Positions 7,932 through 26,824 of a stretch of 64,000 nt of DNA are shown here, one piece after another. Position 1 is the stretch's first letter. Each line of letters opens with the position of its first letter. Source of the DNA: Gemmatales bacterium (GTDB taxonomy: Bacteria > Planctomycetota > Planctomycetia > Gemmatales > HRBIN36); the NCBI GenBank assembly GCA_041640595.1, contig JBEPZY010000001.1:1-64000 (forward strand), written 5' to 3'. The translations under genes and the position numbers were made by a program. The notes beneath the pieces were generated by a model, which saw nothing but the letters and a program-made list of their open reading frames with translations, was not told the origin of the DNA and searched no databases.

Positions 7932-9026
7932 ATGCTGCTGACAATTGTGGCAAGCGTCTGTTTGCTGGCCTGGGTCAACGGTGCCAACGACAATTTCAAG
8001 GGCGTTGCCACACTCTTTGGAGCTGGCGTCGCCAATTACCGTCGTGCTCTGGGTTGGGGCACCACTGCGACCTTGTTAGGCGGAATTGCGGCAGTCTATT
8101 GGGGCCAGGATTTGCTCGCCCGATTCAGCGGACTGCATGTGCAGCCCAACTGGCCGGATCCCTCATTTCCTTTGGCGGTAGGTCTTGCGGCTGCGATCAC
8201 CGTGACCTTCGCCACGCAACTGGGCATGCCTGTATCCACCACCCATGCGCTGATCGGCGCCCTCACGGGAGCCGGACTCGCTAGTGGCCACGATTTCCCA
8301 TGGCGCACTCTGCTCAACACCATTTTCCTGCCCCTCCTGGTTAGCCCGGTGGTGGCCATGACAATTACCCTGGCGCTGTATCCTCCCTTGCGCTGGATGA
8401 GACGGCGGCTGGGTATCGTCAAGCGCAGTTGTGTATGCATCGGTGCCGCAGAAACGGAAATTTTGCCTGCGGAAGTTTCTGCATTGGTGCGTGCTATGCC
8501 CTTGCAGATTAGCGTGGGTAACATGAACCAGTGCCAGGAGATTTACGCTGGTCGGTTGCTGGGGTTGCCAGCAGAAAAAGTCCTGACAGTGTTGCACTAT
8601 CTGTCGGCAGGCCTGGTGAGCTTTGCCCGCGGCTGGAATGATACGCCGAAAATCGCCGCTCTGTTGATTATTTCCCCCGTGTTCCAGGGGCGACCTTCAC
8701 TGGCCCTGCTGATAGTGGCAGGGGTAATGGCTGCGGGCGGTTGGCTTATGGCCGAGCGTGTTGCAGAAACTCTCAGCCACAAGATTACTCCCATGAACGC
8801 CGGGCAGGGTTTCACCGCTAATTTAGCTACCGGTGCACTGGTATTGCTGGCGAATTGGTACGCCCTGCCAGTTTCGACGACGCATGTCAGTGGCGGTAGT
8901 TTGTTCGGACTGGCCTGGCTTACCGGTCAAGGTCGGCTGGGGATTATTACCAGTATTGCCCTATGCTGGGTGTTCACCCTGCCGATCTCGATGGTGTGTG
9001 GTTACTGTCTGCGGGCCATTTTCTAA
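7932..9026 (+). CDS. PiT-family inorganic phosphate transporter
   Basis: NGANDN, two PVSTTH motifs and GWND. Confidence 0.9.
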   Translation: MLLTIVASVCLLAWVNGANDNFKGVATLFGAGVANYRRALGWGTTATLLGGIAAVYWGQDLLARFSGLHVQPNWPDPSFPLAVGLAAAITVTFATQLGMPVSTTHALIGALTGAGLASGHDFPWRTLLNTIFLPLLVSPVVAMTITLALYPPLRWMRRRLGIVKRSCVCIGAAETEILPAEVSALVRAMPLQISVGNMNQCQEIYAGRLLGLPAEKVLTVLHYLSAGLVSFARGWNDTPKIAALLIISPVFQGRPSLALLIVAGVMAAGGWLMAERVAETLSHKITPMNAGQGFTANLATGALVLLANWYALPVSTTHVSGGSLFGLAWLTGQGRLGIITSIALCWVFTLPISMVCGYCLRAIF

Positions 9027-9037
9027 CACCGCGCCGA

Positions 9038-11233
9038 CTATCGCAGCTGATTTCGAATTACGCTGACAGCTTTTTCACGAGCCTCGGGGCCAGCATCCGG
9101 AGAATAGTTAGCATCCCTGACATTCGGGAAAAGCTCGCGCAAATTCGCCCAGGCAAGATAACGAAGTCCGGCCCGTTTGCCGCGCAGCATAATCTCCAGC
9201 AGGCGATTGGCTATCTCGCGATCGCCAATCGGATACCCACGCAACAGTTCCAACAATAATTGGGCCTCCTCAGGCTCGTAACGAAAAGCAGCCCTTACCG
9301 CTTGCACCAATTGCTCAGCCTGGTTCGGATATTGCCCGAGCCAGTAGTGTAACGCTTCCCGCGCGGCCAGGCGGATGTCCGGCTGAGGTCGGCTATCCAG
9401 GACGCGGACCAGTTCATCAAGCTGATTGCAAGCGGCCAGGGCGAACACGGCGAGGTAAGCCTGATAACGCTGGTTCGTGTCGAGTTGCTCGATAAGCGCC
9501 TGCCGGGCTCCTGCGAGCTGCTGTGCCGGATTTTCCACGGCAGCACGCTGGTACACAGCTCGTTGGAACGCTTCCAGTTCTGCTCGCAATGTGGCTGGCA
9601 GTTTGACGGGCTTTTCCATCCAGGACGCCGGACCAGGAGCAGGCAGCATGAGCGGGCGCGGATGCGGCAATTCTGGGTCAGGCACATCCGCTAACACACG
9701 CGAATACGAAAAGACAGGAAAGATTTGCGAGACTCCATCGGGAGTCGTTCGCCGCCACAGCACGCCGCTCTCCAGTGTCCACAGTTCGCGATTCGGCAGG
9801 GATTGGACTGGTTCGCGTCCGCGCTGCAATCGCCAGCTGACAGCCACCAAAATACGCGGAGCACCAGGCGGTAGATAGACATCCCAGGTTTCTTGTCCTG
9901 CAAAGCGTAAACGCAAGCGCGTTGCTGTTTCTTTTCGCCCGGTGAATACAAACCAACCACGCTCCAGGAGCAGATCGGCATCGTAAGTCGGTTGCGGCGT
10001 AAAAATCTGGCACATCGTGTCCAGAACCGGCTCCGGGTGAATCTCCGGGATGTTTCCTACCAACTCCACATGAACACCGCTGTCGAGGCGAAACGCAGCA
10101 CGATAGCCGGGCCAGACGTGAAGATGCTGTCCGGCCAACAGTTTGTCCTGCGGTTGGAGTAATCGCATTTGCTTGCCGTCCGCGCTCCAGGTGCAAAACA
10201 AACTATCTGCAACTCCGGAAAGAGCCGATGTGCCCAAAACTCGCCCATCGTTCACCGGTGGCGAAATGCGGCCCAACAACTCCGCTACCTCACGCGGCTG
10301 GAACTCTCTCGGTATCGGCTCGAATCCCTCCGGCACTACGAACTCTTCTTTCGGTTCCGGTTTCGGAATCTCCGGACTTGGCCGCGGTGCCGGGGCTTCC
10401 CACGGGAATTCGCCGATCAGCGACGTTGCCAGGCACCCGGGGCCGATCGCGCCCTGGGCCACAAACATCGGCATAAGCAACAGCCACCCAGACAGCCGGC
10501 GACTCTGCTCTGCGTCTGGAACAAAGGTTGTCGGTTCGGCCGCCGGTTTCACCTGACCTTGTTCCACGGTTTCCGGACGAGAAGTTTCCTCACGCGTTGC
10601 TTTTGCTGCTTGCGTGCTGGAAACGGTTCGAATTGTGCTGCGACTGACGGCGAAGTACAGCGAAACGGTCAATCCCAGCAGTAGTAGCACAATCACGGCC
10701 AATGGTACCACCCGCTTCGACCAGGGCCCGTGAACCATCATGGGTAAGCCCAACAACCACGCCTGCTCTTCCGGTCGCAGGGCCGGCACTTCTTGGGAAG
10801 TGCTGCGAGCAGTGGGTACTGCTGTCGGTCCGGACTTGCTTTCTGCTCCTTCCAGCAAACCGTACATTCGCCGATACGCACTGGGCGGCGTGCGGGACCG
10901 ATCCAGCTGCGCACCCCCATAGAGCAACTGATGGCAGGTCGCTACCTCGGCCAGCACAGCATCATCCTGCAAACATCGCCGCTCCAGTTCCGCGGCTTCT
11001 TCCGGCGATAAAGTTCCTTCCAGATATTGTGCCAGCAAGGTCGCCGGAACAGCTTCTTCCTCCCGTTCGCCCTCGCTCAACAGCGAACGACGCCGGGTAA
11101 CCCGCTGGATGCGGGCGACCAGCTCTTGCAATTCCTTGCTCTGAGCGATGGCCTCGCTCACCTCCCGCAGCGTTCGTGCTTCCAGAGCGTCATCCAAATA
11201 CGCCAGTATCTGCTTCAGCGACAACTGCGGCAT
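9038..11233 (-). CDS. Planctomycete-type hypothetical membrane protein (anti-sigma-like N-terminus, one TM helix, HEAT-like C-terminus)
   Basis: 731-aa ORF starting LSLKQILAYLDDAL, with LAEVATCHQLL and a single hydrophobic segment. Confidence 0.75.
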   Translation of the reverse strand: MPQLSLKQILAYLDDALEARTLREVSEAIAQSKELQELVARIQRVTRRRSLLSEGEREEEAVPATLLAQYLEGTLSPEEAAELERRCLQDDAVLAEVATCHQLLYGGAQLDRSRTPPSAYRRMYGLLEGAESKSGPTAVPTARSTSQEVPALRPEEQAWLLGLPMMVHGPWSKRVVPLAVIVLLLLGLTVSLYFAVSRSTIRTVSSTQAAKATREETSRPETVEQGQVKPAAEPTTFVPDAEQSRRLSGWLLLMPMFVAQGAIGPGCLATSLIGEFPWEAPAPRPSPEIPKPEPKEEFVVPEGFEPIPREFQPREVAELLGRISPPVNDGRVLGTSALSGVADSLFCTWSADGKQMRLLQPQDKLLAGQHLHVWPGYRAAFRLDSGVHVELVGNIPEIHPEPVLDTMCQIFTPQPTYDADLLLERGWFVFTGRKETATRLRLRFAGQETWDVYLPPGAPRILVAVSWRLQRGREPVQSLPNRELWTLESGVLWRRTTPDGVSQIFPVFSYSRVLADVPDPELPHPRPLMLPAPGPASWMEKPVKLPATLRAELEAFQRAVYQRAAVENPAQQLAGARQALIEQLDTNQRYQAYLAVFALAACNQLDELVRVLDSRPQPDIRLAAREALHYWLGQYPNQAEQLVQAVRAAFRYEPEEAQLLLELLRGYPIGDREIANRLLEIMLRGKRAGLRYLAWANLRELFPNVRDANYSPDAGPEAREKAVSVIRNQLR

Positions 11234-11384
11234 AACACCCCCTTTCTATCCGCGCCTGTCTCAATTACTGTGCGCAAAAGGCCAGAATCACCGAGCTACA
11301 AATCTATCCACGCTATCCCTGGTGGAAAGTTACTCCTTCATTCGCCCGTCCTTGGGGCTGTCCCGTGTTTATTAGTGACTGAGC

Positions 11385-11553
11385 ACACCGAGTTTCGTTC
11401 ACCTTGCGCTTTACCCGCTGTTTGGCGAGAGGTGTGGGTGGTTTGCTCGCAAAACTCCGCGAACAAGAACGTCGCTTTACCCGCTGCATGGCGAGAAGTG
11501 TCGCCCGAAGAAAGGAAGGTTACACCGACTTTCGTTCACTTTGAGCTTTACCC
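11385..11553 (-). repeat. Degenerate CRISPR-like mini-array A: two 29-bp repeats plus a partial third, with a duplicated 32-bp segment
   Basis: cgctttacccgctg(tt/ca)tggcgaga(g/a)gtgt at 11407-11435 and 11473-11501 (66-bp period); gctttaccc recurs at 11545. Segments 11385-11416 and 11522-11553 are identical at 29/32 nt. The minus strand reads hairpin CUCGC-N6-GCGGG followed by UAAAGCGAC. Confidence 0.55.
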
Positions 11554-11696
11554 TGCCAACCGCGTTGGCTGCGCTACTTCAGCCATCTTTTGGCTTAGCT
11601 TCTCTGCGAAACACACCAGAAACTCTCCATGCAGATTGGCTGCCGGTTCTTGTCCGACTATTCGCTTGGCCGGAAAAAATGTTCCTCGTCAGGCGG

Positions 11697-11858
11697 GTTG
11701 GCGTAACACCGTATTACTGTGCACGGGCTGTTAATATCGGCAAAGTCTTCTAGTGGTAATTGGTCGGCGTAACACCGTATTACTGTGCAGGGGTTGCATC
11801 TATGACCAGCCTGCGAGACCGTGCCCACGTCGGCGTATCACCGTATTGCTGTGCAGGG
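11697..11858 (-). CRISPR. CRISPR mini-array B: three 30-bp repeats and two 36-bp spacers
   Basis: Plus-strand repeats gtYggcgtaWcaccgtattRctgtgcaSgg at 11697-11726, 11763-11792 and 11829-11858, exact 66-bp period, unique spacers, just downstream of the type III operon. Orientation is inferred only from the GCAC..GUGU hairpin plus UACGCCGAC tail. Confidence 0.7.
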
Positions 11859-11911
11859 CGGCATTTTCGCTGGATCGCTGAGTCATTCACTCAAGCGGTT
11901 GGGCTGATAGG

Positions 11912-12489
11912 CTAGCCTCTGTTGACGATTAACTGAGCTTTTAGGCGAATGTACGCCAGAGCTAGTTGAATGATGCCAAAATGTCTCTTTCAACTTGTCA
12001 TATCGCGTGGCGATCCGACGAAACTCTTTCAACTTGCCAATCAGCCGCTCTATCTTGTTACGCTCCGCATACGCCTTCCGGTTCACACGCCCCCGGTTTC
12101 GCCGATTGACCCGATAGGGAATCACCGGCCGAATGTTCCGACTTGCCATAGCTTGCCGCTGTGGCTCACCGTCAAACCCTTTGTCCGCCACCGCTTCCTC
12201 AATCTGAGGAAGACGTGCCTGGCTCGCATCGAGCATCTTCTCGACCTGCGTTGCTTCATACACCTGACCAGGTAACACCTCTACCGCCACCGGCGTGTTT
12301 TCATCTATGGCAGTGAGCACAATCTTCGTCGAGAATCCACCCCGACTCCGACCAAGACCCTGCTCGGAGGCAGACCCCTTTTTTCGGTGCCCCTGCCGCG
12401 CACCGATGAGCTCGCACATTCGTGGCATCTATCAAGATTCGCCGGATGGCCGCTAATCTCGGTGAGCAGTTAACAGCTCAAAAGCCTAG
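11912..12489 (-). mobile_element. Decayed IS5-family (IS427-like) element
   Basis: CTAG at both ends (11912-11915, 12486-12489) with imperfect terminal repeats. The orfA remnant ILIDATNVRAHRCAAGAPKKG ends at an AAAAAAG slippery site (12378-12384). orfB has LGRSRGGFSTK, ADKGFD, YAERNKIER and RRIATRYDK. The orfA N-terminus is missing and there is a further frameshift near 11978. Confidence 0.85.
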
Positions 12490-12535
12490 CATTTAGCATG
12501 ATCGGCAAAGGCTGATATTGGTCGTCGTCGGATAA

Positions 12536-14002
12536 TCAATGGCCAATATACTCTCGCAATAGATCCCTGATGTCACTCTCTTCTAGTGGTCTTTTGCTAC
12601 GGAAAAAGATATAACAGGTGGAACCGGACTTGGAGTGTTCAACTTTACATTCGCTAACTGACCACTTGCGTCCTATCATGCTTCTTATTCTTTCCAGTTC
12701 ATTCGTATTTATCCCGTTGGTACATTTACATCGAATAAGGAACCAATCTGGGGGGCAAAAATAGGCGGCCCATTGTTCTCCACCATCCCGCGCGATCTCT
12801 TCAGACAACGCATCCAAATTTATAATTCGACTGGTTTTAGACGCCCGTTCGCACATCTCAAGCAGAGGTGATGCTGTTCCGAGGCGCGGGACTAAACTTT
12901 TTCTAACTGCTTCTTCAATTATTCTCTCTGCCTGCCGGAGGGTTTCATTGAGTTGGCTAACACCGAAAAACCGGGCCAGTTTGGTAATGACAGTGGAGCA
13001 TTGCTGAGCATCTATTACTTCGAGTTGATAAGCTTCAGCCAATTGACGTTCTGTTTCGCTCAATGAGCGATTAGGTCGCAACAGAAGCAGGCGGGCTCCT
13101 AATCCTCCGAGTTCCCGGCGGGTATGGGCTGCCTGGCGAAGTTGCGAGGTGATGCTTTCCACCTTATCGCGCGCTTCATCTTCCCAGGCCCGCAATTTGC
13201 AGTCAATAATATTCAGGCGACCACCATGGTTGGCAACAATGTCTACCTCCTGGACCACGCCTCCTTCAATAGACTTGCGTAGAACATTGCATATGACATT
13301 ACCAACTCCCATTTCGAGCAAAATGGCAGCCACCAGTTCCTCAAAGAGGAAACCAGGTTGCTCTTTTCCTTCTATACGAGGAACGTTACATTCCTTAAAA
13401 GCCAGCTTCCAGTTCCACTGGTTTTCCGCAGCTACGCGGATGATGTCCACGACCGGCAACCGCCTGGGTCGGATGCCCACATCCACTTCCCAGCCTTCGC
13501 CTCCCCAGAAAGTCTCCAGCAAGGTGCTTACGGGTACAGCATCGGTCTCGGATGGTGGAATGTTAAGTGGTTGTGCTATAATAGTTCGTCCGTCGCGGTC
13601 GCGCAGCAATTCAAACCATCCTGACGTCAGTTCCTTATAGACCACCTTAACTCCCGGTTCCCCGGTCAAACGCAGGACGCCCGCGGTCATAAGTTTCGTT
13701 CCGCCAGTGGCATTAAGAACCCATTCTAATCTATCGAAACGCTGGATCCAGTTCCTTAGTTGCTTAGTAACATCAGCAGGTTGCATCCCTAGTGGTGAGT
13801 CAGGCATGATAACAGTGGCGTCTCTAATATACTTTTCGCAAAACTCTTTGAGCCTGAGAGCCGGTTGCTTCGAACGCCGTGGATCGCCTGTGTAGTAAAT
13901 ACAGACGCACTTTAGTTGGTCATGCCAGTGCACCAGACTCTGGATATTTGGCCAGAGCTGTTCGCTGGCCAGAAGCACCATACCAAGACTGCGCTCAGTC
14001 AT
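12536..14002 (-). CDS. CARF + PD-(D/E)xK nuclease, Card1/Can2-like cOA-activated effector
   Basis: N-terminal LASEQLWPN, CARF motif LNATGGTKLM, and nuclease motifs GFLFEELV..EVDIV..IIDCK. Last gene of the type III operon. Confidence 0.85.
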   Translation of the reverse strand: MTERSLGMVLLASEQLWPNIQSLVHWHDQLKCVCIYYTGDPRRSKQPALRLKEFCEKYIRDATVIMPDSPLGMQPADVTKQLRNWIQRFDRLEWVLNATGGTKLMTAGVLRLTGEPGVKVVYKELTSGWFELLRDRDGRTIIAQPLNIPPSETDAVPVSTLLETFWGGEGWEVDVGIRPRRLPVVDIIRVAAENQWNWKLAFKECNVPRIEGKEQPGFLFEELVAAILLEMGVGNVICNVLRKSIEGGVVQEVDIVANHGGRLNIIDCKLRAWEDEARDKVESITSQLRQAAHTRRELGGLGARLLLLRPNRSLSETERQLAEAYQLEVIDAQQCSTVITKLARFFGVSQLNETLRQAERIIEEAVRKSLVPRLGTASPLLEMCERASKTSRIINLDALSEEIARDGGEQWAAYFCPPDWFLIRCKCTNGINTNELERIRSMIGRKWSVSECKVEHSKSGSTCYIFFRSKRPLEESDIRDLLREYIGH

Positions 14003-14087
14003 GCTCGATCCCCCAGAGCGCCGGTCAGGGCAACCATACTATTTACGAGCGTGGCAGCTAAGGACGGCGGCCCTGCTGCGGGTGCGA

Positions 14088-16571
14088 TTACCGGCGCTCG
14101 CCTCGCTCTAGGATTGGTAAACCCGTGTCTTCCGACAGATTGGGCAGCGCGTAGCCATGTTGTATCCGGCCCTGCTGGACACGTTCATTCTCGACAAACC
14201 ATTCGTAAGCCAGGCCTTCAGGATTTGGTTCTCGTTGACTGCGGGGATAGTGCACAGGTAAGCTGTCGTCGAACCCTTTGGCCATCCGTAGAAAGGCCTT
14301 GATAAACGGCACTTCGTCGAATGCCTTATTCTGTCCATAGACCCGCTTGACGGCGTCTTGAAATGTCTGGATAATTCCACCTGCAGATTGATCACTAAGC
14401 ACGTCATTCAGTGTGTCGTCCATGTTTTCATAAGCATTCTTCCAGGCGGCGCCATTGCCAACTTTGGTGTTAGTCCAGTCGATTTCCAGGTAAACGCTGC
14501 CGAAGCCCAGTGGCTTGGCGCCGCCGAAACGGTGGTAGTGTTCCTTAGGTAAACTAAGCAACCAGAGCAATGCTCCGAGTTCGACCTTAGACAGGTTGGT
14601 GATATGGATATCGAAAGTGAACTCGGTGCCCGGTTTCACCCAGCCCTGAATAGAACGATTCTGATCGTCGCGCTGCTCCTGACCGTTGAGCATAGGCCGG
14701 CGATATTCCTGGAAATATTTCCCATCCATTGCCTGCTGGGTGCGATCTACCATCGGATTGTCCCAATATCGCTCAGGCAGTTTATGATGGGGATAAACCT
14801 TTCGGCCTCGCAGACCCTTGCCGGAAGAGTAGCCAGCTTTCTCCTTATCTAAGCCGTCCTTCTGGGCCTCACCATCGGGACTGGCCGCGACATAGAAGCG
14901 TGCCTGTTGCGGTTTCGGCTGTCCGAGAATGGCCAGCGGCAGGCCAGGCTCTCGTTTTGCCTCTTCGCCATACAGGTTGCGCTTCTGCTTGTTGAACCAT
15001 TCGATGGCGTCTTCAGGAGAAGTTTGGCACGTTACCGGACCTATACGCAGATGGCCGCGATAGGCTCCTTTACCTTCCTGATTGACCCAACCAAAAACGC
15101 GATCCGCCGGGGAGAGTTCCTTGATCTGAGTCGCTGGTCGAAGGGATGGGGGTACCAGGGAAAGTGGGGAAACAGAATAAAGATCCCTGGAAATTGTTAC
15201 AGGATAGATGCCACTAATCCTGGAGTTGTTTTCAAGGCGAACATAGCAAAGCGTTCCAGGCTTAAGTTTGAGGTATTCTTTATCCCATATATGTCGAGAC
15301 CATGCGGTTCTTCCCGGTTCGTTTCCTAGATAGTCAGTTGGGTTTTCTCCTCTTATACGCCGTTGTTCCAAGTCCTTTACGTGAGTTTGCTGATAGTTCT
15401 CGATCAATTCGGTCCAGAGTCGCCTTATTCGCTGGGCTTCCTCATTTGTGAGGACCAGCAAGCGGTCTTTACTGGTGACCACGAAGACCCGCTCGTAGCG
15501 CTTAGTGTTAATGTTAGGCTCAGTGATAAGCACCCATCCCTCATAATAACCTTGAGGAACTGTACGTTCCGTATAGCGCTTTATCTCAGACACCCGACCA
15601 TTACCTTCTACCCGTACCAGGACATGATCGCCATTCTCTGGGAGAGAATTATCAGGATAGCGCAAAGCGGCCCGGCTCTCTCCTTTCCTACGGTCATTGC
15701 GCTGAGGACGTTGTTCATAACGAGGCAGTTTTGCCGCTGACTTGAGCCAGAGTTGGGAAAGGAGGCGAATGACAACGCGGTCTTCTTCACATTCTTCAAC
15801 ACGGGCTGGTACCACTTCGATGCGTGCTGGTCGTCGAAAAGCCAAGCGGGCACCATGCCCCGTCGCATCTCGACTACCGCTGGCTTCATGTCCCGGGAAT
15901 ACGGCCAGGCGGGAATTAGTAATCGCTTCGTAAGCCGAACGCAGCATTCCCTTGAGGGAGGTCGGCGGGATATAGGGTTTGCCGTCGGCGTCGAGACGCA
16001 CGGGAAAGCTTTTATGACCGTTGCCAATGTCGGTAGCGTTGGCGGCGTCGGGGAGCAACAGGGGCGTAATGGCCGTCATTTTGACCCGAATGACGCCAGT
16101 ATAACGATCTGGGAACAAACGGTGGTGGCCGACCGGCTCATGATCGCCTAAGTCCGGATCATTAGTCTTTCGAGGAGGGGCAGGGATGAAATTGTAAGGA
16201 TTATGGAAAGCACGCTGTAGGCTGGTCTTACTTGTCTGGCTAGGCGTCGGCTGGGGTTGACGGCCCGTCGAACCACTTGTGCCCACCATAGGACGAGCAC
16301 CGCTGGCAGCTTGTGGTCTTGTTGAAGAGGCTGACGGAGGAACGAAAGCCTGACCCTTGCGGCGTATTCGTTTGACAGCACCGCCCTCCTGATCAAACTC
16401 CACCTCCACACCATCGAGCTGTTGTATCGTCCGGGAATCCCGGCGCAGTTGTTCTAAGTCGGCGGAGAGTTCGCCTTGCGGAATTTGAGCGAAGACAGGT
16501 TTGCCTTTTTTGCTGGTGTATTCCAACACGAGTGCTTTATTCGTAGTAACGCGCAGTTTGCCTTCAGCCAC
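14088..16571 (-). CDS. cas7: Cas7 with large insertion (TIGR03986-type RAMP), type III-D
   Basis: FHNPYNFIP, PYIPPTSLKGMLRSAYEAITNS, LSPADRVFGWV, LRGRKVYPHH and G-rich loop GGAKPLGFG. Confidence 0.92.
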   Translation of the reverse strand: MAEGKLRVTTNKALVLEYTSKKGKPVFAQIPQGELSADLEQLRRDSRTIQQLDGVEVEFDQEGGAVKRIRRKGQAFVPPSASSTRPQAASGARPMVGTSGSTGRQPQPTPSQTSKTSLQRAFHNPYNFIPAPPRKTNDPDLGDHEPVGHHRLFPDRYTGVIRVKMTAITPLLLPDAANATDIGNGHKSFPVRLDADGKPYIPPTSLKGMLRSAYEAITNSRLAVFPGHEASGSRDATGHGARLAFRRPARIEVVPARVEECEEDRVVIRLLSQLWLKSAAKLPRYEQRPQRNDRRKGESRAALRYPDNSLPENGDHVLVRVEGNGRVSEIKRYTERTVPQGYYEGWVLITEPNINTKRYERVFVVTSKDRLLVLTNEEAQRIRRLWTELIENYQQTHVKDLEQRRIRGENPTDYLGNEPGRTAWSRHIWDKEYLKLKPGTLCYVRLENNSRISGIYPVTISRDLYSVSPLSLVPPSLRPATQIKELSPADRVFGWVNQEGKGAYRGHLRIGPVTCQTSPEDAIEWFNKQKRNLYGEEAKREPGLPLAILGQPKPQQARFYVAASPDGEAQKDGLDKEKAGYSSGKGLRGRKVYPHHKLPERYWDNPMVDRTQQAMDGKYFQEYRRPMLNGQEQRDDQNRSIQGWVKPGTEFTFDIHITNLSKVELGALLWLLSLPKEHYHRFGGAKPLGFGSVYLEIDWTNTKVGNGAAWKNAYENMDDTLNDVLSDQSAGGIIQTFQDAVKRVYGQNKAFDEVPFIKAFLRMAKGFDDSLPVHYPRSQREPNPEGLAYEWFVENERVQQGRIQHGYALPNLSEDTGLPILERGERR

Positions 16572-16592
16572 GGTTCTTCTCCTTTCGCTGAT

Positions 16593-17168
16593 TTATTTCT
16601 GTGGGTTGATGCTAAATCCAGTGAGACGTTCTTCGAAGACGACCACGTTGCCGTGATCACGCTCGACTAAATATTCGATGCTACGCAAAAGCACATCAGC
16701 CTTATCAGGAACGTCCGATACAGGCACCTGCAAGGCGCCGACGCGCGCCATAGCAATGGTGCTCCAGCCATCTAATGTTTGGCCAGTGCCCTGTCCCCAG
16801 AGTAAATACGTTTGTTCGAGTGTTTCTAACACGTCTTCTTTATGCACATTCCAGTCGTTGCGAAGTTTGGCGACCAGGTCTGTTTCTGCCAGGATCACCG
16901 CGCGATGCTGTTTAGCAGCGGTTGGGTCATTTAGCCAGCGTAACTCCAGCTTATCCGTAAAGATGCGTGCTTCATATGCCTGTGATATATCTAAGGTTCG
17001 ACCGGCGGCATTCAAAAACTGACCCGCGGCAAAGCGAGCGAGGTAAAACTTCTCCGGAGTAAAGAGAAAAGCTGTTGCCGGGTCTCCGTTAGCAGCTAAT
17101 GCAAAAGCATCGCCTGCCTGTAGCAGCGATAAGCCCTGCCGGCGGTAAATGTATAAGGTCTTGCTCAT
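16593..17168 (-). CDS. csx19: Csx19 (TIGR03984-type)
   Basis: YEARIF, ELRWL, YLLWG and GNVVVFEERL; located between cas7-2x and cas7-insertion. Confidence 0.88.
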   Translation of the reverse strand: MSKTLYIYRRQGLSLLQAGDAFALAANGDPATAFLFTPEKFYLARFAAGQFLNAAGRTLDISQAYEARIFTDKLELRWLNDPTAAKQHRAVILAETDLVAKLRNDWNVHKEDVLETLEQTYLLWGQGTGQTLDGWSTIAMARVGALQVPVSDVPDKADVLLRSIEYLVERDHGNVVVFEERLTGFSINPQK

Positions 17169-17197
17169 GTATTAGCTCCTTGGCTGGAAGTCCTAGC

Positions 17198-18721
17198 TCA
17201 CTGAGTTTCTTGCAACCATTGCCGCCAGGCTTGCTTGATTTCCTCGGGCACGCTAATAAGTTGGCCATTTTCAATCCGCACCTGGGCAAGCTTAGCTAGG
17301 GTACTATCCGTTGTACTTATCGCGAAGCGCACGTTGATGACGCGAATGCTACCCATGCCGCGATGTGTAGCGAACCCTAATGGGATGCGGTCTTGAGCCA
17401 GGTCGCGCAATATCAGCAGTAATAGCGCCACCGCAGGTAAACGTTCATTAGAAGGGAGACGCTGGAAATCGAGAGTCAGTCGAATAGGTTCCCAATTAGC
17501 ACGGTGCGGTTCCAGCACGGTATAGAGCATACTTTCGGCCGACGAACCGAGCCAGCGATCGACGGCAACATGATAAGCTTCCTGCCACGCCTTCAACATA
17601 GCGCTATCCAGTGCCTGACGCATTTCTAAGTCAGTTTGAGCCGTCTCGATTGCTTGCCATTGCTCTCTGCGTAAACGGTTTCGACCATAACAGTCATCCA
17701 CTGCTAAAGCTCCCTGACCGGGGAGGCAATCCTGATGATCGTTTTGCTTCATTTGCTGCTGTCCTCGCATTCCGAAAAGCTCATTAATCAAAGGTAACTC
17801 GACCTGGCTGAGGAAGCGTTGTTTGGCATCCGATACGTCTTTGAAATCTTTATCCAAAAGAGTGCGAACAATGCGTTCGGCGTGGCTGCGCAGCGAGCCT
17901 TTGATCGAACTGCCAGGCAAAACCAGAGCAACCTGACCATTGACGCCGCTAACTAGAGGGATCATGTCCGCGGCAACACCCTCATAACCGGCTTTGACCA
18001 TAAGTGGGCCAACTGGTTCCCAATCAATAGTGATAGTCCAGGTCTGTGCCTGATGCGGGGAGTAATTCTGACAGGCTGTTTGCAATTCATCTATGCTGAC
18101 CGGACTGCCGTCGGTCTTTTCCAGCGCCTCTAATATTCCATTCCGCTCATTGAATATCCATCGGCGAACCTCGGCATTTTCTAGTCGGACACGTCCTAAA
18201 CCGCGAGTTTTTGCAGCCCCCAGGCGAATTTCCTCGGCTTCTAAAGCATTTTTCAAGTGAGCTAACACGGCCAGCGCTCGCTTATGATCTAAGTCTTCGC
18301 CGACCTCCATGATGAGGGAAAGTCGTAGCCGCGTGCCGCGAGGCAAAATCGCTCGGTCAAACTTGATGTGTTCGGCAGCGCATCCCCATTTACGATCAAT
18401 ACCGACATGGTCGCGGATTTCGTCCAAAACTGAATCGGCGTTTTCAACGGCAGCATCCTCGACTATGACATAGGAAGCATGTCCTTCTTCTCCTTCCTGG
18501 AAACCCCATAAGCGTCGGACAAATTCGACACCGAATCGTCGTTCGCACCAGTGGCGGAAAGGGCCGGCCAGACTCGTACCGGGCACGTACCACTCGCCGC
18601 GACCGTTGCGGGCCAAAGGTAGGTCGGTGTCCACGTCTTCGCTGAAACCACCGACATGCAGCGGCGTAGTTGCGACCAGTGTTCCTTGCAGGCGCAAGCG
18701 GGCTGAAATCGCGCGTGCCAT
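17198..18721 (-). CDS. cas7: Cas7-Cas7 fusion (Cas7-2x)
   Basis: Two RAMP modules: TPLHVGG..YVPGTSLAG..LGAAKTRGLG and VLPGSSIKGSLRSHAERI..LGFATHRGMG. Confidence 0.9.
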   Translation of the reverse strand: MARAISARLRLQGTLVATTPLHVGGFSEDVDTDLPLARNGRGEWYVPGTSLAGPFRHWCERRFGVEFVRRLWGFQEGEEGHASYVIVEDAAVENADSVLDEIRDHVGIDRKWGCAAEHIKFDRAILPRGTRLRLSLIMEVGEDLDHKRALAVLAHLKNALEAEEIRLGAAKTRGLGRVRLENAEVRRWIFNERNGILEALEKTDGSPVSIDELQTACQNYSPHQAQTWTITIDWEPVGPLMVKAGYEGVAADMIPLVSGVNGQVALVLPGSSIKGSLRSHAERIVRTLLDKDFKDVSDAKQRFLSQVELPLINELFGMRGQQQMKQNDHQDCLPGQGALAVDDCYGRNRLRREQWQAIETAQTDLEMRQALDSAMLKAWQEAYHVAVDRWLGSSAESMLYTVLEPHRANWEPIRLTLDFQRLPSNERLPAVALLLLILRDLAQDRIPLGFATHRGMGSIRVINVRFAISTTDSTLAKLAQVRIENGQLISVPEEIKQAWRQWLQETQ

Positions 18722-18735
18722 GAGGTTCCCTCACT

Positions 18736-21111
18736 CTAAGATTGGTGTTCTTCCAGTTCGCGTTTGTGAGCGCGAATACAGGCATCGAAGAACATGCGGA
18801 TTGCCAGGGGCCAGAGTTCCTGCTGGAGTTGCTGCGCCGCATCTTTTGTGAGAGTTGGCCAGTTATGCGATTGGAGAATTTTCTGCCATATTTCACCGCG
18901 ATTCTGCAGCAGGCTTTCGATTCGGTCCAGCGAACCGTTGGGCCATTTCTCGCTGCGGCGGGGATTTTGCTGGAGATGGTGGAGCCAATCCAAAACCGCC
19001 TGTGCATCCTGGGCTGTTCGCAAACGAGCCAGCTGGTTGCGTAACCCGCCGAGCTGACTCATGGGCGGCTTCCCTTCACGTCCACTAACTGTCCAACCCA
19101 GCAACTTTTGCCGTAGCGTTCTATCCGCAGCAATGCGCAGGCAGGCGCGGCGAATTTCCTGTTTCCAGCATTCACGCTCGATCAATCGGGCATACTCGTA
19201 GCCGGCATCCTGCGGTGTGAGCAGGGCAGGGGGCGAATTCGTGGAGACTGGTTGCGGTATCGGCGAGCTTTTGGCTGCCACCTGGGAGAATGGTTGGGTC
19301 AGCAACGGATGGTTGAAACGCACCTGACCGAATCCTTCTGCGGTGCGGTCGCCAATGCCGCTGACCTCCAGCTTGCTCAGTTTGGCCGGGTCTAAAGTTC
19401 CTTGCTGAACTTCAAAAACCACGCAAGAACCCGCTTGCAAGGCCACCAGCGAAGGTCGGGGCAATCCCCAGCCGACGTGCCAGGGTTCCAGCCGGCGGAC
19501 ACGCACCAGGGCATCGAGTGTACCTTGCGCAGCGGAATCCCGGATTCGCAGCGGGACGCCCAACCACCGGCTCAGTTCCTGCCTCAGCGTTTCTGGCGTT
19601 GGTTCTAGATGCACTTGTTCGTTACGCAGGAGCGTGTCCGAAACCAGCCAAACGAACAACTGATTGCCCGACAGCTCAGGCATACTGCCTGACGACTCGC
19701 GGGGCGCTTCTGCGTGCAATTCGACCTCGCCGTAATCGTCCTTTTTCGATCGTCCCAGTGAAACAATCCCGCTGAGTTTGCGGTACCAATTGGGATCGCT
19801 CGCGGTCAGTTGCTTCGCCCAACCGCCCCGCAGTCGCAACTCGCTGCGTAGCACCACTTCAGGAGCGATGGCTTCGTAACTGTAAACGCCGCCGGTTTCC
19901 TCCGAGGGACGCTGATACTCGTCAAACACGCTGTTGTGAGTCAGCATCGTTTTCGGTGTTTTGAGGTACTGCGTTGGCTGCGTGGGTGAGAGAAAACCAT
20001 CGCGGAGCTGTTTCAGTTGCTGATCCCCGCCGGGTTCTCTGGCGACGAGACGGTTGACGACTTTTTCGGGTTCTTGCAATCCCTTACCTTCTTTAGGAGC
20101 GTAAAGTGCCAGAGGCACAGGTTCGCCGCGCTGCCCAGCTATTTCCGGATGGGCCGGCAGAACGACAACATCTCCCGATGGTACCGCGGCTCGCAGTTGC
20201 GGAAACGTTTCTGTGATAAACGGAAGCAGGTAGTAGCCCGGCAGATAATCGAGCGATTCGACGACGTTGCCAGTAGCGCGGTAGGCTACCGCGAGTGGCC
20301 CACGCAGAATGAGTTTCAGCGGCACACTCACCCAGTCGTCGTCTTGGGCAGGTGGCGTTTCTACAGCTGGCGTTAATCGCTGGACTGTTTCGACAGGCCA
20401 GTCGGGCGCGGAAGGGTGTTGCTTGAGCCATTCGATGGCTGGCCTTTCGTCAGCAGGTCTGCCGGCGTTATCAAGAATCTCCAGGCGGCACCGTCCGGCT
20501 CCGCGGCGACGTTTGCCACCGAGCCGTTCGACCAGTTTCGCCGAAGCAATCAGGAGAGCGCTGACGGCCTCGCGGACGCTGTAAGGCACCTGCATGGCAC
20601 ATTCCGCCTCGAGAACGGTACCGACGCGGGCCATTTCTTCGAATCGCAAAAAATCCGTTTTGGCCGAGCCACTGCGAGGGTCAATGGCCACGCCTGGCTT
20701 GACGAACGTCAGCAGCTGACGCAGTCGTGGATCAGCGCTCTGCAAGCATTCACGCAGAGGCGACGCGATTCGTGCGGGCCGAATTTGTACGGCGGAGGGC
20801 AACGGTTCCTGAGCGGGGTCCTGATGTCGGCCATTTGGATCATGAGGCCCGAGGGCAGGCTGGCTCCCGAAGAGATGATCCACGAATCTCGACCAACCGC
20901 CCACCTGACCGTTATCCAGACCTCGACAGAGCAACTCACAGGCATCGCGCCAAATGCCCCGCAGGGTTTTCGCAGGTACGTACGGCAGTTTGTCGTGGTC
21001 TCGCAAAATCAGGCGATCGATGTTTCCCGGCCGACCAGTGCCCGAACCGACATGCCAGTCGCTCAGCATGGTCAGCCGCACTCGAAACTGCTGTGGTAGT
21101 GGCCAAGGCAT
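18736..21111 (-). CDS. csx10: Cas7-Cas5-Cas11 fusion (Csx10-containing)
   Basis: SDWHVGSG..PYVPAKTLRG..LGGKRRRGAG (Cas7); LGRSKKDDYG and GIGDRTAEGFG (Cas5/Csx10); helical C-terminus with SQLGGLR (Cas11-like). Confidence 0.88.
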   Translation of the reverse strand: MPWPLPQQFRVRLTMLSDWHVGSGTGRPGNIDRLILRDHDKLPYVPAKTLRGIWRDACELLCRGLDNGQVGGWSRFVDHLFGSQPALGPHDPNGRHQDPAQEPLPSAVQIRPARIASPLRECLQSADPRLRQLLTFVKPGVAIDPRSGSAKTDFLRFEEMARVGTVLEAECAMQVPYSVREAVSALLIASAKLVERLGGKRRRGAGRCRLEILDNAGRPADERPAIEWLKQHPSAPDWPVETVQRLTPAVETPPAQDDDWVSVPLKLILRGPLAVAYRATGNVVESLDYLPGYYLLPFITETFPQLRAAVPSGDVVVLPAHPEIAGQRGEPVPLALYAPKEGKGLQEPEKVVNRLVAREPGGDQQLKQLRDGFLSPTQPTQYLKTPKTMLTHNSVFDEYQRPSEETGGVYSYEAIAPEVVLRSELRLRGGWAKQLTASDPNWYRKLSGIVSLGRSKKDDYGEVELHAEAPRESSGSMPELSGNQLFVWLVSDTLLRNEQVHLEPTPETLRQELSRWLGVPLRIRDSAAQGTLDALVRVRRLEPWHVGWGLPRPSLVALQAGSCVVFEVQQGTLDPAKLSKLEVSGIGDRTAEGFGQVRFNHPLLTQPFSQVAAKSSPIPQPVSTNSPPALLTPQDAGYEYARLIERECWKQEIRRACLRIAADRTLRQKLLGWTVSGREGKPPMSQLGGLRNQLARLRTAQDAQAVLDWLHHLQQNPRRSEKWPNGSLDRIESLLQNRGEIWQKILQSHNWPTLTKDAAQQLQQELWPLAIRMFFDACIRAHKRELEEHQS

Positions 21112-21125
21112 GGATTCAGCTCCGA

Positions 21126-22799
21126 TTAAGCGTTCGGCTCCTTATTGGCTTCGTTTTCCTGACTTTTTGGTAAAAATTCCGCTGCGTCCATGGCGTCGAG
21201 CAGGGCGGTACGCCAGATGATCCGGCCATCCTTCGTATCGCTCCAGAAAAGTGAGTTGTTATCACCCAGGAGTGTCTCTAATCCCTGCTTGCGATAACGG
21301 GGGAGAACCAACTTAAGTCGGGCATCAGCTTGTTTTCGCCCCAGGAACAGACCCTCACGCAACTCGTGCAACATGCTATTGGGCAACTTCCGCCGATTAT
21401 CTTCGGTAGCCTGAATTGCTTGCACCTTCTCTACCAATTTCGACCAGTGATGATGGCCCTGAGCGTTGGCATGGCTGCTCACAACGTAAGGCCGGGCGGT
21501 CAACATCGTTTCGCCGTTATCCAGCGTCCATTCCTGGCGTATGCGATCCAGGTCGGGATTACTGGCGTCGTAAAGGATGTGAAAGTCAAGGGCTGATTCT
21601 GGCTTACGCTGCTTGGCGGATTTCAATAAGGCTTCTGCGAGTTCATATCCGGCAAAGAACGGGAAATGCGGCTTGATGATGGCGACACCAGCACAACCGG
21701 TCAGGCCGTGCGGCAGATGTTTTTGACCAAGCTCGGTCTGTCTGAAGTTTGCGATAATCGTCTCGATCGCCTGATGGTTCCGAGCCGCCTGCTCGAATGA
21801 TTCCAGGAACTTTACCGTGAACATCAGCGCCTGCTGGCCATCGCAGACCACCGTCAGGTCGTCGCCGCCTAGAACCAGCGGCACAATGGGTAGCCTGTCC
21901 CGGCGCGATGTCAAAGTTCCCAGGGCTTCAGTGAAGGCCTTTTCCGTGCATTCATCCAGTGCCAGGGAGAAGTTACGCAACTGTTCAATATAATGCCGAT
22001 TCCATTGATGCGAACCTCGTGGTGCCGGAGATTCGACGCACTTATCGAAATTCAAAAAGAGTCGGCCCAGTCCGTTGCCATCGGCATGAATGATCGCCAG
22101 CCAGTCGCAGCCCAGGTCTTCCAGGTGGTCCGGCGAATGGGGTAGCCTTGCGTCTGACACAATTTGGCGAATCCGTTTCAGACCGTTTTGGGCAGCTTGA
22201 ATTTTGGCGAACGACATAGCCGATCGTGGGCCGGGATCCCGACCGCTGTTGTCCCACCTGGCGGCTGGCAAACCGCTCGTGGCACAATCCATAACAATCG
22301 GCAAACGCTGAAAACGGGTCAGCGGGCCCGGTAATCGCGATCGCACCCGCTCGTAATCCTGATGCACTTCCTTGATCACCTCGTGAATGGACACGCTGGC
22401 AAGCTCGAACTCGCGCGAAACCGCGCCCCAGACTTCCAGGCCAGGTGCTTCTCTCAAGGCTCGCAGTGTAACTTGACGAACGATATGTCGGCCCAAGGCT
22501 TCGTGCTCAACCAGCAACAGTGCCTTGCCGGAAACGGCGAGGATCACTTCAACCGGATTGCCGTTGCCAATCGCCGGATTTTGCCTGGTATCCCGCAAGG
22601 CCCGGCGAATCCTGTCCGGATGCACCGATCCGTCAGTTTCAGGCCACAGATTTGGCCCACCGGCGTTTGCCACGGCTTCCAACACGAACCTGGTTCCCGT
22701 CTGGTACGTCAATTCCGACGCGCCAACGTTTTCCCGCAATTTGTTCGTAGCAAAAATATACGCCTGATTCCCCGCGGTCTCGATCAATACCAAACGCAC
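21126..22799 (-). CDS. cas10: Cas10 lacking the HD nuclease domain, with an intact GGDD cyclase palm
   Basis: IETAGNQAYIFATNKL, IIHADGNGLG, LGGDDL and KPHFPF. GTG start at 22799 follows GGAGG; the ORF track starts at 22970. Confidence 0.92.
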   Translation of the reverse strand: MRLVLIETAGNQAYIFATNKLRENVGASELTYQTGTRFVLEAVANAGGPNLWPETDGSVHPDRIRRALRDTRQNPAIGNGNPVEVILAVSGKALLLVEHEALGRHIVRQVTLRALREAPGLEVWGAVSREFELASVSIHEVIKEVHQDYERVRSRLPGPLTRFQRLPIVMDCATSGLPAARWDNSGRDPGPRSAMSFAKIQAAQNGLKRIRQIVSDARLPHSPDHLEDLGCDWLAIIHADGNGLGRLFLNFDKCVESPAPRGSHQWNRHYIEQLRNFSLALDECTEKAFTEALGTLTSRRDRLPIVPLVLGGDDLTVVCDGQQALMFTVKFLESFEQAARNHQAIETIIANFRQTELGQKHLPHGLTGCAGVAIIKPHFPFFAGYELAEALLKSAKQRKPESALDFHILYDASNPDLDRIRQEWTLDNGETMLTARPYVVSSHANAQGHHHWSKLVEKVQAIQATEDNRRKLPNSMLHELREGLFLGRKQADARLKLVLPRYRKQGLETLLGDNNSLFWSDTKDGRIIWRTALLDAMDAAEFLPKSQENEANKEPNA

Positions 22800-23167
22800 G
22801 ATGCATTCCTCCACACGTTCTGGGTGTCCTTCGGTTCCGGCAACGTTTTCGCGGCCGAGTAGGTTCGTCGCCGGGACTGATAGTTGGCTTCCCACTCTTA
22901 AAAACGAAAGCTGCTCGGGTGGAGTGACAAATTTTGTCTTGCCAGGCGGAATGGGGCTGGTTGTTTCCAAGGGTGGTTGGTGATGAGCAAATGGCTGGGC
23001 TGGCTGCTTTTCACACGCTCATAACTGCGAGCTCACCCATCTGCGACAATGACAGTCTCGAAAAGCCGTGATGCGTACAGTTGCGGCACAGACGGCGTAT
23101 GCGGATGGGCAATTATCGTTACAAGACTGTGCTGAGCAACTTGCTTGCGCCAGTTGCCTGGTTCTAT

Positions 23168-23773
23168 TTACAGTCCGAAGCCGCTAGTGCTTCCTTGAAC
23201 GGCGAGGGCAGGGGCTGCTAGAGCGGTGTCAGTTTGGTGCAGGCGAGGTAGTGGAAAACAGGCTGCCCAACGGGGACGCGAAATGCAGCTGGACGAATGT
23301 GATGGCAAGCCGATGGCTGCGTTGCGACCAACACCGGCATCTCGGGGCGGAGGTATAGTACAGCTGGGTTGATGCGATTGGTTGGTGCTTAACCTTGCTC
23401 GGCCGAGACGCCACCCTTCCGGGCAAGTGAGATACAGATGGACTAATGCAATGTCATGAGCCTGGCGAGCTACCACTGCTCCACCCCGACTCGCGGGAAA
23501 GTGTAGTGCAGATGAATCAATGCGATGACAACTGGCCGCCAGGATTACGCCGTTGGGAAGAGCCAGAACGTTTGGGCCTGCGAAATCGTGTGTGCCGGGC
23601 TTGATTTTCTCGTTAAGTTTCCATTGCTGCTGCGATTTGTGTTTCTCGCGCTGTTCTTTCATGTGCATTCCTAGGAACGCGAGAGCTAGCAGTGCCGCGA
23701 GCAGCGCTGTGATAATGCCGAAAACGCAACCACAACCGAAGCCGAATCCACTGCGAAAACCGTTTTGGCCCAT
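23168..23773 (-). CDS. Possible small membrane protein (uncertain; C-terminal part may be non-coding)
   Basis: Gly-rich GFRSGFGFGCGC followed by a TM-like stretch. The remainder looks unstructured. Confidence 0.3.
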   Translation of the reverse strand: MGQNGFRSGFGFGCGCVFGIITALLAALLALAFLGMHMKEQREKHKSQQQWKLNEKIKPGTHDFAGPNVLALPNGVILAASCHRIDSSALHFPASRGGAVVARQAHDIALVHLYLTCPEGWRLGRARLSTNQSHQPSCTIPPPRDAGVGRNAAIGLPSHSSSCISRPRWAACFPLPRLHQTDTALAAPALAVQGSTSGFGL

Positions 23774-23824
23774 TGTAAGTTTTCCCTGCATCTCTCAGCT
23801 GATGATAAAGCGACCTCCGCGCAG

Positions 23825-23857
23825 AAAAAAACCCCTGGAGGGGACGCCTCCAGGGGT
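23825..23857 (-). terminator. Rho-independent terminator of the 16S transcript
   Basis: Perfect stem CCCCTGGAGG/CCTCCAGGGG with a 5-nt loop, followed by T7 on the minus strand. Confidence 0.9.
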
Positions 23858-24231
23858 GAGATATCAATCTGGCAGTGCGGGAAGAGGACGATCACGATGT
23901 GGGCCTGTAGGAGGTGCCGGTTGCCCGGCAGACCACTCCTTAGAAAGGAGGTGATCCAACCGCAGGTTCCCCTACGGTTACCTTGTTACGACTTAGTCCC
24001 CATCAGGAGTTTCGTCTTCGGCGCCTGCCTCCCCTTGCGGGGTTAGCGCGGCGACTTCGGACGCCCCTCCCTTTGGTGGCTTGACGGGCGGTGTGTACAA
24101 GACTCAGGAACACATTCACCGCGGCATTGCTGATCCGCGATTACTAGCGATTCCGGCTTCATGGAGGCGAGTTGCAGCCTCCAATCTGAACTGGGCGGCG
24201 TTTTTTGGGATTTGCTCCCCCTCGCGGGTTT

Positions 24232-24272
<41 letters not shown>

Positions 24273-24281
24273 GGGCATAAG

Positions 24282-24331
<50 letters not shown>

Positions 24332-24406
24332 AGTCCCGCCAGAGTGCTCGGCATGACCCGGTGGCAACTGGCGGCAGGGGTTTCGCTCGTTATGGGACTT
24401 AACCCG

Positions 24407-24450
<44 letters not shown>

Positions 24451-24516
24451 CAGGCTCCGGACTGGGTACCGGTCGCCCCACCTTTCGGCAGGGCTACTTC
24501 CTGGCATGTCAAGCCC

Positions 24517-24607
<91 letters not shown>

Positions 24608-24710
24608 GCCATACTCCCCAGGCGGGGTACTTAGCACTTTCGCTTCGGCGGCAAGCCCAGGCCGAGCCTACCGCCTAGTACCCATCGTTTAGGGCTGGGA
24701 CTACCGGGGT

Positions 24711-25701: not shown

Positions 25702-25906
25702 ATCTAATCCCGTTTGCTCCCCCAGCTTTCGTGCCTCAGCGTCAGGACACACCCAGGGACGCGCCTTCGCCTCCGGCGTTCCTGCCGATCTCTACCCATT
25801 TCACCGGTCCACCGGCAGTTCCCGTCCCCTCGTTGTGCCTCTAGCCCACCAGTATCCGGGGCAATTCCCCGGTTGAGCCGGGGGATTTCACCCCGGACTT
25901 GGCAGA

Positions 25907-25940
<34 letters not shown>

Positions 25941-26824
25941 GCAACGTTCGCACGGTTCGTCTTACCGCGGCTGCTGGCACGAACTTAGCCCGTGCTTCCT
26001 CTGGCGTTGGGTCAAGCCTTTCGGCTTTCCCGCCACCTGACAGGGGTTTACAACCCGAAGGCCTTCTTCCCCCACGCGGCGTCGCTCCGTCAGGCTTTCG
26101 CCCATTGCGGAAGATTCTCGGCTGCTGCCACCCGTAGGTGTCTGGCCCGTGTCTCAGTGCCAGTGGCGCTGGTCGTGCTCTCACACCAGCTAGGCATCTT
26201 CGCCTTGGTAGGCCGTTACCCTACCAACTAGCTAATACCACCTGGCCCGATCCCCAGGCGGAAGGCCACCTCACGGTGACCAACCCTTTGACGGATGCGT
26301 CATGCGACCCACCCGTATCGCCCGGTATTAGCCCCAGTTTCCCAGGGTTATCCCGGTCCTGGGGGTACGTTAGCCAGGCATTACTGCCCCGTTCGCCGCT
26401 CGACTCCACTGAGTTGCCCCAGTGGGCCTCGCTCGACTTGCATGCCTTATCCACGCCGCCAACGTTCGCTCTGAGCCAGGATCAAACCCTTCATAGGAAA
26501 TGGCTTACTTCGGCCTGCACAGACCGAAGTGCAAATCCCAACCGGTCGCCATCTGCTCCGGTGGGTTTGCTATCGCCATCCAGGGTTTGACAGCGAGCCG
26601 CCGGACTCGACGAACAGTGCCTGCTTCGCTTTGACATCGTCAAAGCCAGCAAGGCTCTGTGTCTCGCCTCGGCAGCGGACACATCGGATCGGGGCCTCGT
26701 CCCTATCACTGCCAGATTGTCAAAGAGCCAATTTACCGGCCAGTGGCTCGGACCGACTTAGACGCCTGGGCCACACCAGTAATCATCTCTTTTCCACCTG
26801 CCCGTGCGTCCGTCGGCATCAAGT

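Follow-up and report, generated by a model that had tools for sequence, protein, structure and literature searches.

What is the role of two short clusters of direct repeats that lie at the 3' end of a type III-Dv CRISPR effector operon? The question is raised by a 64,000-nt stretch of the genome of a hot-spring planctomycete, a Gemmatales bacterium (the window, below), in which a first-pass annotation had described two mini-arrays, A and B, and had suggested that they are either fixed regulatory guides of the CreA/CreR kind or remnants of two systems. The present data favour the second of these readings over a functional one: with a probability of about one half, A and B represent a pair of short CRISPR arrays in decay, and the operon in front of them depends on arrays and Cas6 encoded elsewhere. 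The CRISPR-like nature of B is well supported and that of A is plausible; from the evidence set out below, we infer their loss of function and a supply of guides in trans.

The operon and its flank comprise the following features.

14088-22970, minus strand: type III-Dv effector operon
21126-22970, minus strand: cas10
18736-21111, minus strand: cas7-cas5-cas11
17198-18721, minus strand: cas7-2x
16593-17168, minus strand: csx19
14088-16571, minus strand: cas7-insertion
12536-14002, minus strand: CARF + PD-(D/E)xK nuclease gene, 488 aa, in an alternative cassette
11912-12487, minus strand: truncated IS5-family copy, lacking about 345 nt at the transposase N-terminal end
9038-11233, minus strand: anti-sigma-like gene, 731 aa, with an anti-sigma-type zinc finger

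That the operon is of type III-Dv, as had been stated, is confirmed: the five genes stand in the order expected for this subtype, the products match the Synechocystis III-Dv complex (PDB 8s9t; E values of 1.6e-168 for Cas7-Cas5-Cas11 and 5.2e-104 for Cas10), and Cas10 retains GGDD. The truncation of the IS5-family copy was judged against two fuller genomic copies, and its contig depth is that of a multi-copy element. Directly adjacent to the operon, the 16S rRNA gene (23944-26497, minus strand) probably carries an intron: it spans 2554 nt against a model of 1533 positions. The insert of about 1 kb contains an ORF for a 257-aa LAGLIDADG endonuclease (24747-25520), and a group I intron model matches weakly at 24718-24952 (24.8 bits, below the gathering score). 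The window also includes a SAM riboswitch (40676-40788, minus strand, 86 bits) and a tandem repeat (49649-49821) with a 30-nt period, 5.8 copies and 62% matches.

Both repeat clusters are located within the intergenic stretch 11234-11916, between the anti-sigma-like gene and the IS copy.

11370-11406, minus strand: promoter-like element, TTATTAGTGAC ... TTTCGTTCAC on the plus strand, abutting A repeat 1
11407-11435: A repeat 1, 29 nt; minus-strand stem of 5 bp (CUCGC/GCGGG), then UAAAGCG
11436-11472: A spacer, 37 nt; one single change per contig, otherwise equal in four alleles
11473-11501: A repeat 2, 29 nt (from self-comparison and allele alignment)
11522-11553: second copy of a 32-nt direct repeat, consisting of the promoter box and the first 10 nt of A
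11554-11696: non-coding stretch between A and B, 143 nt; candidate leader for a plus-strand reading of B
11697-11726: B repeat 1, 30 nt, GTTGGCGTAACACCGTATTACTGTGCACGG on the plus strand (from self-comparison and allele alignment)
11727-11762: B spacer 1, 36 nt, strain-variable (from allele alignment)
11763-11792: B repeat 2, 30 nt, with the same 24-nt core as repeat 1
11793-11828: B spacer 2, 36 nt, the same across strains (33/35 identical to each contig)
11829-11858: B repeat 3, 30 nt, the most divergent B copy in the window

Self-comparison and shuffled controls confirm the basic layout that had been described, namely three imperfect copies in B and two in A, a common 66-bp period and unrelated cores. 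The copies of B start at 11696, 11762 and 11828; copies 2 and 3 have 91% and 74% identity to reference copy 1 over 35 nt, and the 24-nt core is identical in copies 1 and 2, with two core changes in copy 3. The copies of A start at 11407 and 11473 and have 90% identity. The best ungapped match between the A and B cores is 12/27, a value reached by 1487 of 5000 shuffles. In a scan of region 11234-11910 (offsets 40-199, cut-off at least 17/24 matches), the offsets returned were 66, 132, 137 and a weak 190, and no periodic self-similarity was detected apart from A, B, the 32-nt repeat and this weak offset.

B fits the definition of a CRISPR array as at least three near-identical direct repeats of 23-50 nt; A alone, with two full copies only, does not. 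The regular spacing by unique sequences of similar length (36, 36 and 37 nt) is found in both, as is adjacency to cas genes. The 66-bp period is also the commonest period of a 317-repeat array of 30-nt repeats elsewhere in this genome (154 of 316 intervals). Dispersed REP or operator elements, the finding that had been named as speaking against CRISPR arrays, are ruled out by the lack of further copies: with up to seven mismatches allowed, neither B nor the 32-nt repeat has another copy in the 42 contigs (4.45 Mb), and the one extra match to A, with seven mismatches, is read as chance.

The claim that each repeat reads as a hairpin plus a tail ending in CGAC holds in part. The CGAC end is present in two of the three B copies and one of the two A copies, and the minus-strand stem of A occurs in both of its copies (z of only -1.1 and -0.1 against shuffles); none of the A or B copies exceeds its shuffles in folding. 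The three copies of B adopt different folds, and B has no consistent hairpin. One base pair of the A stem is G-U on the minus strand and a C-A mismatch on the plus strand, which favours, though not decisively, reading A on the minus strand; for B, weak indications point to the plus strand. Around the arrays, no promoter passed the scan, and three terminator-like sites were observed, a weak excess over the 1.1 +/- 1.3 in shuffles. A hairpin GCCAAC-CGC-GTTGGC (11555-11569) and a terminator-like site (11566-11585, plus strand) lie between A and B, and a terminator-like hairpin followed by TTTT overlaps B repeat 3 (11847-11863, plus strand). An Rfam search of 10500-13000 (E up to 10) returned two chance-level matches and no CRISPR repeat family.

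Comparison among strains provides most of the evidence on the history of the locus. An exact-pattern scan of metagenome contigs yielded three contigs of the same species (L074, L075 and L076), and all three carry A and B at the same place, giving four alleles with the window. L076 is collinear with the window at 97.8% identity over 14.4 kb. L074 (97.7%) and L075 (91-93%) match the window up to 11916, beyond which they contain 1.3 kb of other DNA before the window sequence is rejoined inside cas7-insertion at 14185. This alternative DNA encodes a 365-aa CARF-nuclease (PADLOC match) without pairwise similarity to the 488-aa CARF-nuclease of the window. The alternative CARF + PD-(D/E)xK nuclease cassettes are thus placed as follows.

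Window, 11912-14184: cassette with the 488-aa nuclease
L074, 10086-11410: cassette with the 365-aa nuclease
L075, 1004-2325: cassette with the 365-aa nuclease

The truncated IS5 stands at the junction in the window and in L076, and both junction types, with and without the IS, are seen among contigs from public runs; the 23-nt start of the IS-free flank is absent from this genome. In L074 and L075 (two of the three contigs), the stop codon of the 365-aa CARF-nuclease is about 20 nt from B repeat 3. The arrays thus belong directly behind the operon, and the IS and the 488-aa cassette represent a later exchange.

In B, the period, the third repeat and the second spacer are retained across alleles. 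Spacer 1 of the window is wholly different from the sequence of matching length that is common to the three contigs (15 of 34 columns match, and 9 of 28 beyond a common TTAA, by hand count), the flanks being retained. Relative to the window, B repeat 1 of the three contigs has an A>T change, a 2-nt gap and a G>A change; about three differences are likewise found in each of the adjoining halves of B repeats 1 and 2, and the B repeats within the three contigs differ from one another at several positions. Contigs from public runs have a loose end and variants at B spacer 1. This replacement looks like CRISPR-like recombination or turnover, as a single event. Spacer variation between stable repeats is limited to one of the two B spacers and one event with differing flanking repeat halves, the A spacer being constant. 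The conservation of spacers among relatives, which had been proposed as a check, thus gives a divided answer: the A spacer and B spacer 2 persist throughout the four alleles, and B spacer 1 has been exchanged.

All four alleles retain A repeat 1, the A spacer, A repeat 2 and the 32-nt repeat. The variable sites of A repeat 1 comprise three in the loop (alleles TTT/CCC/CCT/CCT) and one in the stem, and A repeat 2 has one loop site with three alleles (A/A/T/C). Identity between the A region and the contigs is 92.9-94.1%, similar to the level at third codon positions (95.6-97.7% in the anti-sigma-like gene, 85.7-94.8% in cas7-insertion). A and B both change at about the pace of third codon positions, and A thus shows no sign of constraint above near-neutral change. 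The stretch between A and B is identical at 134 of 142 positions to each of the three contigs.

In one RNA library, the assembled contigs span 10700-11705 with the whole of A, running from the anti-sigma-like gene through A; these contigs carry no strand or end information, and DNA carry-over is possible. RNA library X4 has no contig over 11744-11830 and a depth of 0-3 on 12527-13300; neither finding shows that the region is silent, since strain variants interrupt contigs and depth is an unreliable guide. In RNA library X20, one 253-nt contig at depth 3 extends across 11773-11916 into the IS-free flank.

The window had been described as free of cas1, cas2 and cas6; cas1 and cas6 are indeed absent from its 64,000 nt, and a genome-wide search detects two Cas1 and two Cas6 matches outside it, so that the genome, which is very rich in CRISPR, is not Cas6-less. 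A type I-B + III-B locus adjoins the array of 317 (+27) 30-nt repeats; a type III-A locus, split over small contigs, includes a partial cas6 and an array of six repeats; another cas6 stands alone; and a pair of reverse transcriptase and cas1 genes adjoins a 246-repeat array of 37-nt repeats, with no effector genes beside it. These CRISPR-related sites of the genome (G000) are at C1:358631-377934, C8:2-21080, C10:65236-66999, C20:1210-1570 and C5:156788-157537. The C10 array is directly flanked by a copy of the IS5-family element found in the window.

The 37-nt repeat of the genome, CTCGCAACTTAGACCCCAACCAATAGGGGATTGAAAC, has a stem and a ...TGAAAC end, i.e., a III-D-type hairpin plus a AUUGAAAC end. 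This is the cognate repeat type of III-D and III-Dv systems (35-37 nt, a stem-loop and an 8-nt ...GAAAC-type end), and neither A nor B belongs to it. With 29-30 nt, A and B end in GUAAAGCG and ACGCCGAC on the minus strand and in AGGTGT and GCAGGG on the plus strand, and the canonical 8-nt ...GAAAC tag is absent from both in either orientation. Similarity of A and B to the 30-nt, 30-nt(b) and 37-nt repeats of the genome is within shuffle expectation. The ACGGTG/CACCGT core shared by B and the 30-nt repeat was considered as a sign of kinship and was rejected, being itself within that expectation.

Arrays occur within the fetched flanks of 23 of 61 related III-Dv loci, mostly with 35-37 nt repeats and a GAAAC-type end, including some in hairpin + ...TGAAAC style (e.g., L057 and L060). 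An A- or B-like repeat (up to 8 mismatches) is absent from these 61 loci, apart from one 8-mismatch match in L036 that is taken as chance. The A/B region was found in none of 40 relatives, and the B core in none of 266 other genomes of the order. At the nearest loci (L007 and G009 contig 219), the DNA up to the contig ends contains no array. In L007, a Gemmataceae MAG that is the nearest named relative, the operon flank has neither a CARF-nuclease nor an array; at 12514-15208, the operon is followed by genes for a 467-aa protein with weak deaminase and nucleotidyltransferase matches and a 466-aa protein with a Csx3-like match.

The type III-Dv locus of Synechocystis sp. PCC 6803, in the part of its description considered here, carries cas6-2a together with adaptation genes, and its array holds 56 spacers between 37-nt hairpin repeats that end in ACTGAAAC (PMC11026444). 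The five-gene effector operon and a CRISPR array downstream are shared with the present locus, which differs in having no cas6 or cas1 in cis, 29-30-nt repeats without the ACTGAAAC end, and only 1-2 spacers. The 37-nt repeat of this genome is in the style of that Synechocystis repeat, and A and B are not.

Mini-arrays have been found near 10-14% of type III loci and judged to be degraded, and the part of that survey considered here reports neither targets nor conserved positions for them (10.1101/2023.03.03.530964). A and B resemble these arrays in having 2-3 units just outside the operon, no detectable target and conservation limited to close relatives. They differ from the mini-arrays as described there in three respects: their repeats resemble no full array of their own genome, two unrelated repeat types stand side by side, and one spacer has been swapped between strains, making B recently dynamic.

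Taken together, the 66-bp geometry, the uniqueness of the repeats, their constant position, the spacer turnover, the near-neutral change and the lack of a canonical repeat end argue for degenerating arrays. So do the other sources of guides in the genome (the I-B + III-B and III-A loci, the reverse transcriptase + Cas1 module and the two Cas6 matches), and degraded type III mini-arrays provide a precedent, so far as the survey cited above goes. B would be a real, if tiny, array in which two 36-nt spacers separate three 30-nt repeats and the content of which changed between strains. A would be a more eroded unit, in which a single fixed 37-nt spacer lies between two 29-nt repeats of hairpin type; it abuts the promoter of the neighbouring gene, with part of the junction duplicated. 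The main supply of guides probably comes from neither: the effector would most probably load trans crRNAs from the 246-repeat array beside the reverse transcriptase gene and cas1, after cleavage by one of the genome's two Cas6 proteins, which are encoded outside this locus.

Three points run counter to this interpretation. The variable sites of A are clustered in the hairpin loops, which, judged from the alleles, could reflect selection on structure; the RNA-library contigs hold the A region; and both arrays survived in four alleles despite the adjacent IS insertion and cassette swap. Moreover, since a spacer was swapped between strains that are 2-7% apart, B-type arrays were still in flux not long ago, and 'dead' is perhaps too strong a word.

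An alternative, which we regard as conceivable but unlikely, is that B, and perhaps A, is a working mini-array, transcribed from its own leader and supplying a few crRNAs to III-Dv or another resident effector. A working B would more likely be read on the plus strand, with a leader at 11554-11696, the newest spacer first, a degenerate last repeat and a terminator-like hairpin. In agreement with this polarity, the strain-variable spacer is at the low-coordinate end and the most divergent repeat of the window is at the opposite end; the non-coding flank of B measures 143 nt at its low-coordinate end and about 20 nt towards the operon in IS-free alleles; and the hairpin with TTTT inside repeat 3 is on the plus strand. 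The period equals that of the I-B/III-B array, and the position is conserved in the four alleles. Against it, neither orientation offers a canonical 8-nt tag, and recognition by the resident Cas6, Cas1 and effectors is not expected because the A and B repeats are unlike every array repeat of the genome. The lack of any promoter passing the scan, the weakness of the terminator signal, the divergence among B repeats within the three contigs and the failure to find a protospacer also argue against a working array.

It seems distinctly improbable that A is not of CRISPR origin and belongs to the control region of the anti-sigma-like gene, as protein-binding direct repeats or a structured 5' leader, leaving B as the only CRISPR relic. 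A would then have been created or reshaped during a rearrangement upstream of the promoter. On the gene strand, the promoter-like motif reads GAAC, 17 nt, GTC, which we take to resemble an ECF-type promoter. TTATTAGTGAC and TTTCGTTC, separated by 8-11 nt, precede the anti-sigma-like ortholog in three of three same-genus genomes (L099, L100 and L101), matching window positions 11370-11402. In these genomes, accC lies almost directly beyond the motif; here it is at C1:109607, about 98 kb away, so that the ancestral neighbourhood ends, at a rearrangement breakpoint, at 11406/11407. A repeat 1 starts exactly there, where similarity to the same-genus promoter regions ends. The 32-nt direct repeat (11385-11416 and 11522-11553, 91% identity) includes the promoter box of the gene, which makes up its first 22 nt. 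The partial A copy that had been counted as an array unit is the tail of this repeat, starting 71 nt, not 66, after A repeat 2. The box is mutated in the second copy in three of three contigs, and the first copy is invariant in TTTCGTTCACCTTG; the second copy is thus a decaying duplicate of the junction, not an in-register third A repeat. The presence of two full A copies only, and RNA-library contigs that run from the gene through A, would also suit a control region. On the other side, A shares its period with B and the 30-nt array and is adjacent to a cas operon, has a repeat-spacer-repeat geometry with a unique 37-nt spacer, shows no excess conservation and has no A-like counterpart upstream of the ortholog in any of the three same-genus genomes.

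Still less probable is a reading in which the III-Dv complex, with no cas6 in cis, takes its guides from the two non-canonical mini-arrays beside it. As their repeats lack the usual 8-nt tag, cleavage would fall to a host RNase or to the effector; A, with its invariant spacer, would be a fixed guide to a housekeeping or regulatory target, and B a slowly renewed immune memory.

Searches for spacer targets bear on all functional readings. Spacers and flanks match the rest of the genome over at most 15 nt exactly, or 17/18 with one mismatch (E at least 0.08). Within the locus (9000-24500) and the alternative cassette, the best match is 14/16. A match of this size joins the window-specific B spacer (11746-11761) to the 3' end of the 488-aa CARF gene (12579-12594), with 12 contiguous positions on the same strand; by our own estimate, it is probably due to chance, given the number of comparisons. 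No spacer match was found in the other fetched loci. The suggested search of viral sequences was equally negative: none of 50,697 phage records contains a spacer match, and viral contigs gave no exact match for the two queries used, a 22-nt segment taken from spacer 2 and the core of B.

CreTA/CreR-type crRNA-like regulators are known from type I and V systems, and known regulatory mini-arrays have repeats like the cognate CRISPR repeat. Array A, with two degenerate repeats around one conserved spacer beside cas genes, is similar in outline; A and B differ from such regulators in the type of system (III), in repeats that resemble each of the three repeat families of the genome only at chance level, and in the absence of a partial target at a cas promoter or toxin gene. 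The proposal that A and/or B are fixed regulators of this kind, pairing partially with a host transcript (e.g., a cas or toxin RNA), is the least probable of those considered: the A spacer is the same in four alleles with stems mostly kept, A is beside the cas operon and is present in RNA-library contigs, but the repeats are unlike any cognate repeat, the targets are no better than the 14/16 match locally and chance genome-wide, the conservation of A does not exceed the third-codon-position level, one B spacer is strain-variable, and type III mini-arrays, so far as the survey reports, have neither targets nor conserved positions (10.1101/2023.03.03.530964).

A likeness of the B tail to type III-E repeats had been noted as a possible coincidence, and the comparison agrees with that caution. 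Type III-E (Cas7-11) loci occur in the same phylum, and cas7-insertion has a partial match to the III-E gRAMP model. The repeats of two planctomycete III-E loci are 36-37 nt long and end in ATGTCACGGTAC; they share 11-13 matches with B, equalled by 239-826 of 1000 shuffles, and B is thus not of the III-E type. A literature search turned up no mention of the III-E repeat end together with Cas7-11.

Degraded mini-arrays beside type III loci have already been described (in the part of 10.1101/2023.03.03.530964 considered here), and the population detail of the present case is instructive. If A and B are relics, the locus would be a clear example of a III-Dv module that persists without its own array, cas6 or adaptation genes, depending on arrays and Cas6 elsewhere, with a flank reshaped by the IS and the exchange of CARF-nuclease cassettes. 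If they are functional, a III-Dv effector would accept guides with non-canonical repeat ends, which would matter for crRNA biogenesis and for the engineering of compact effectors.
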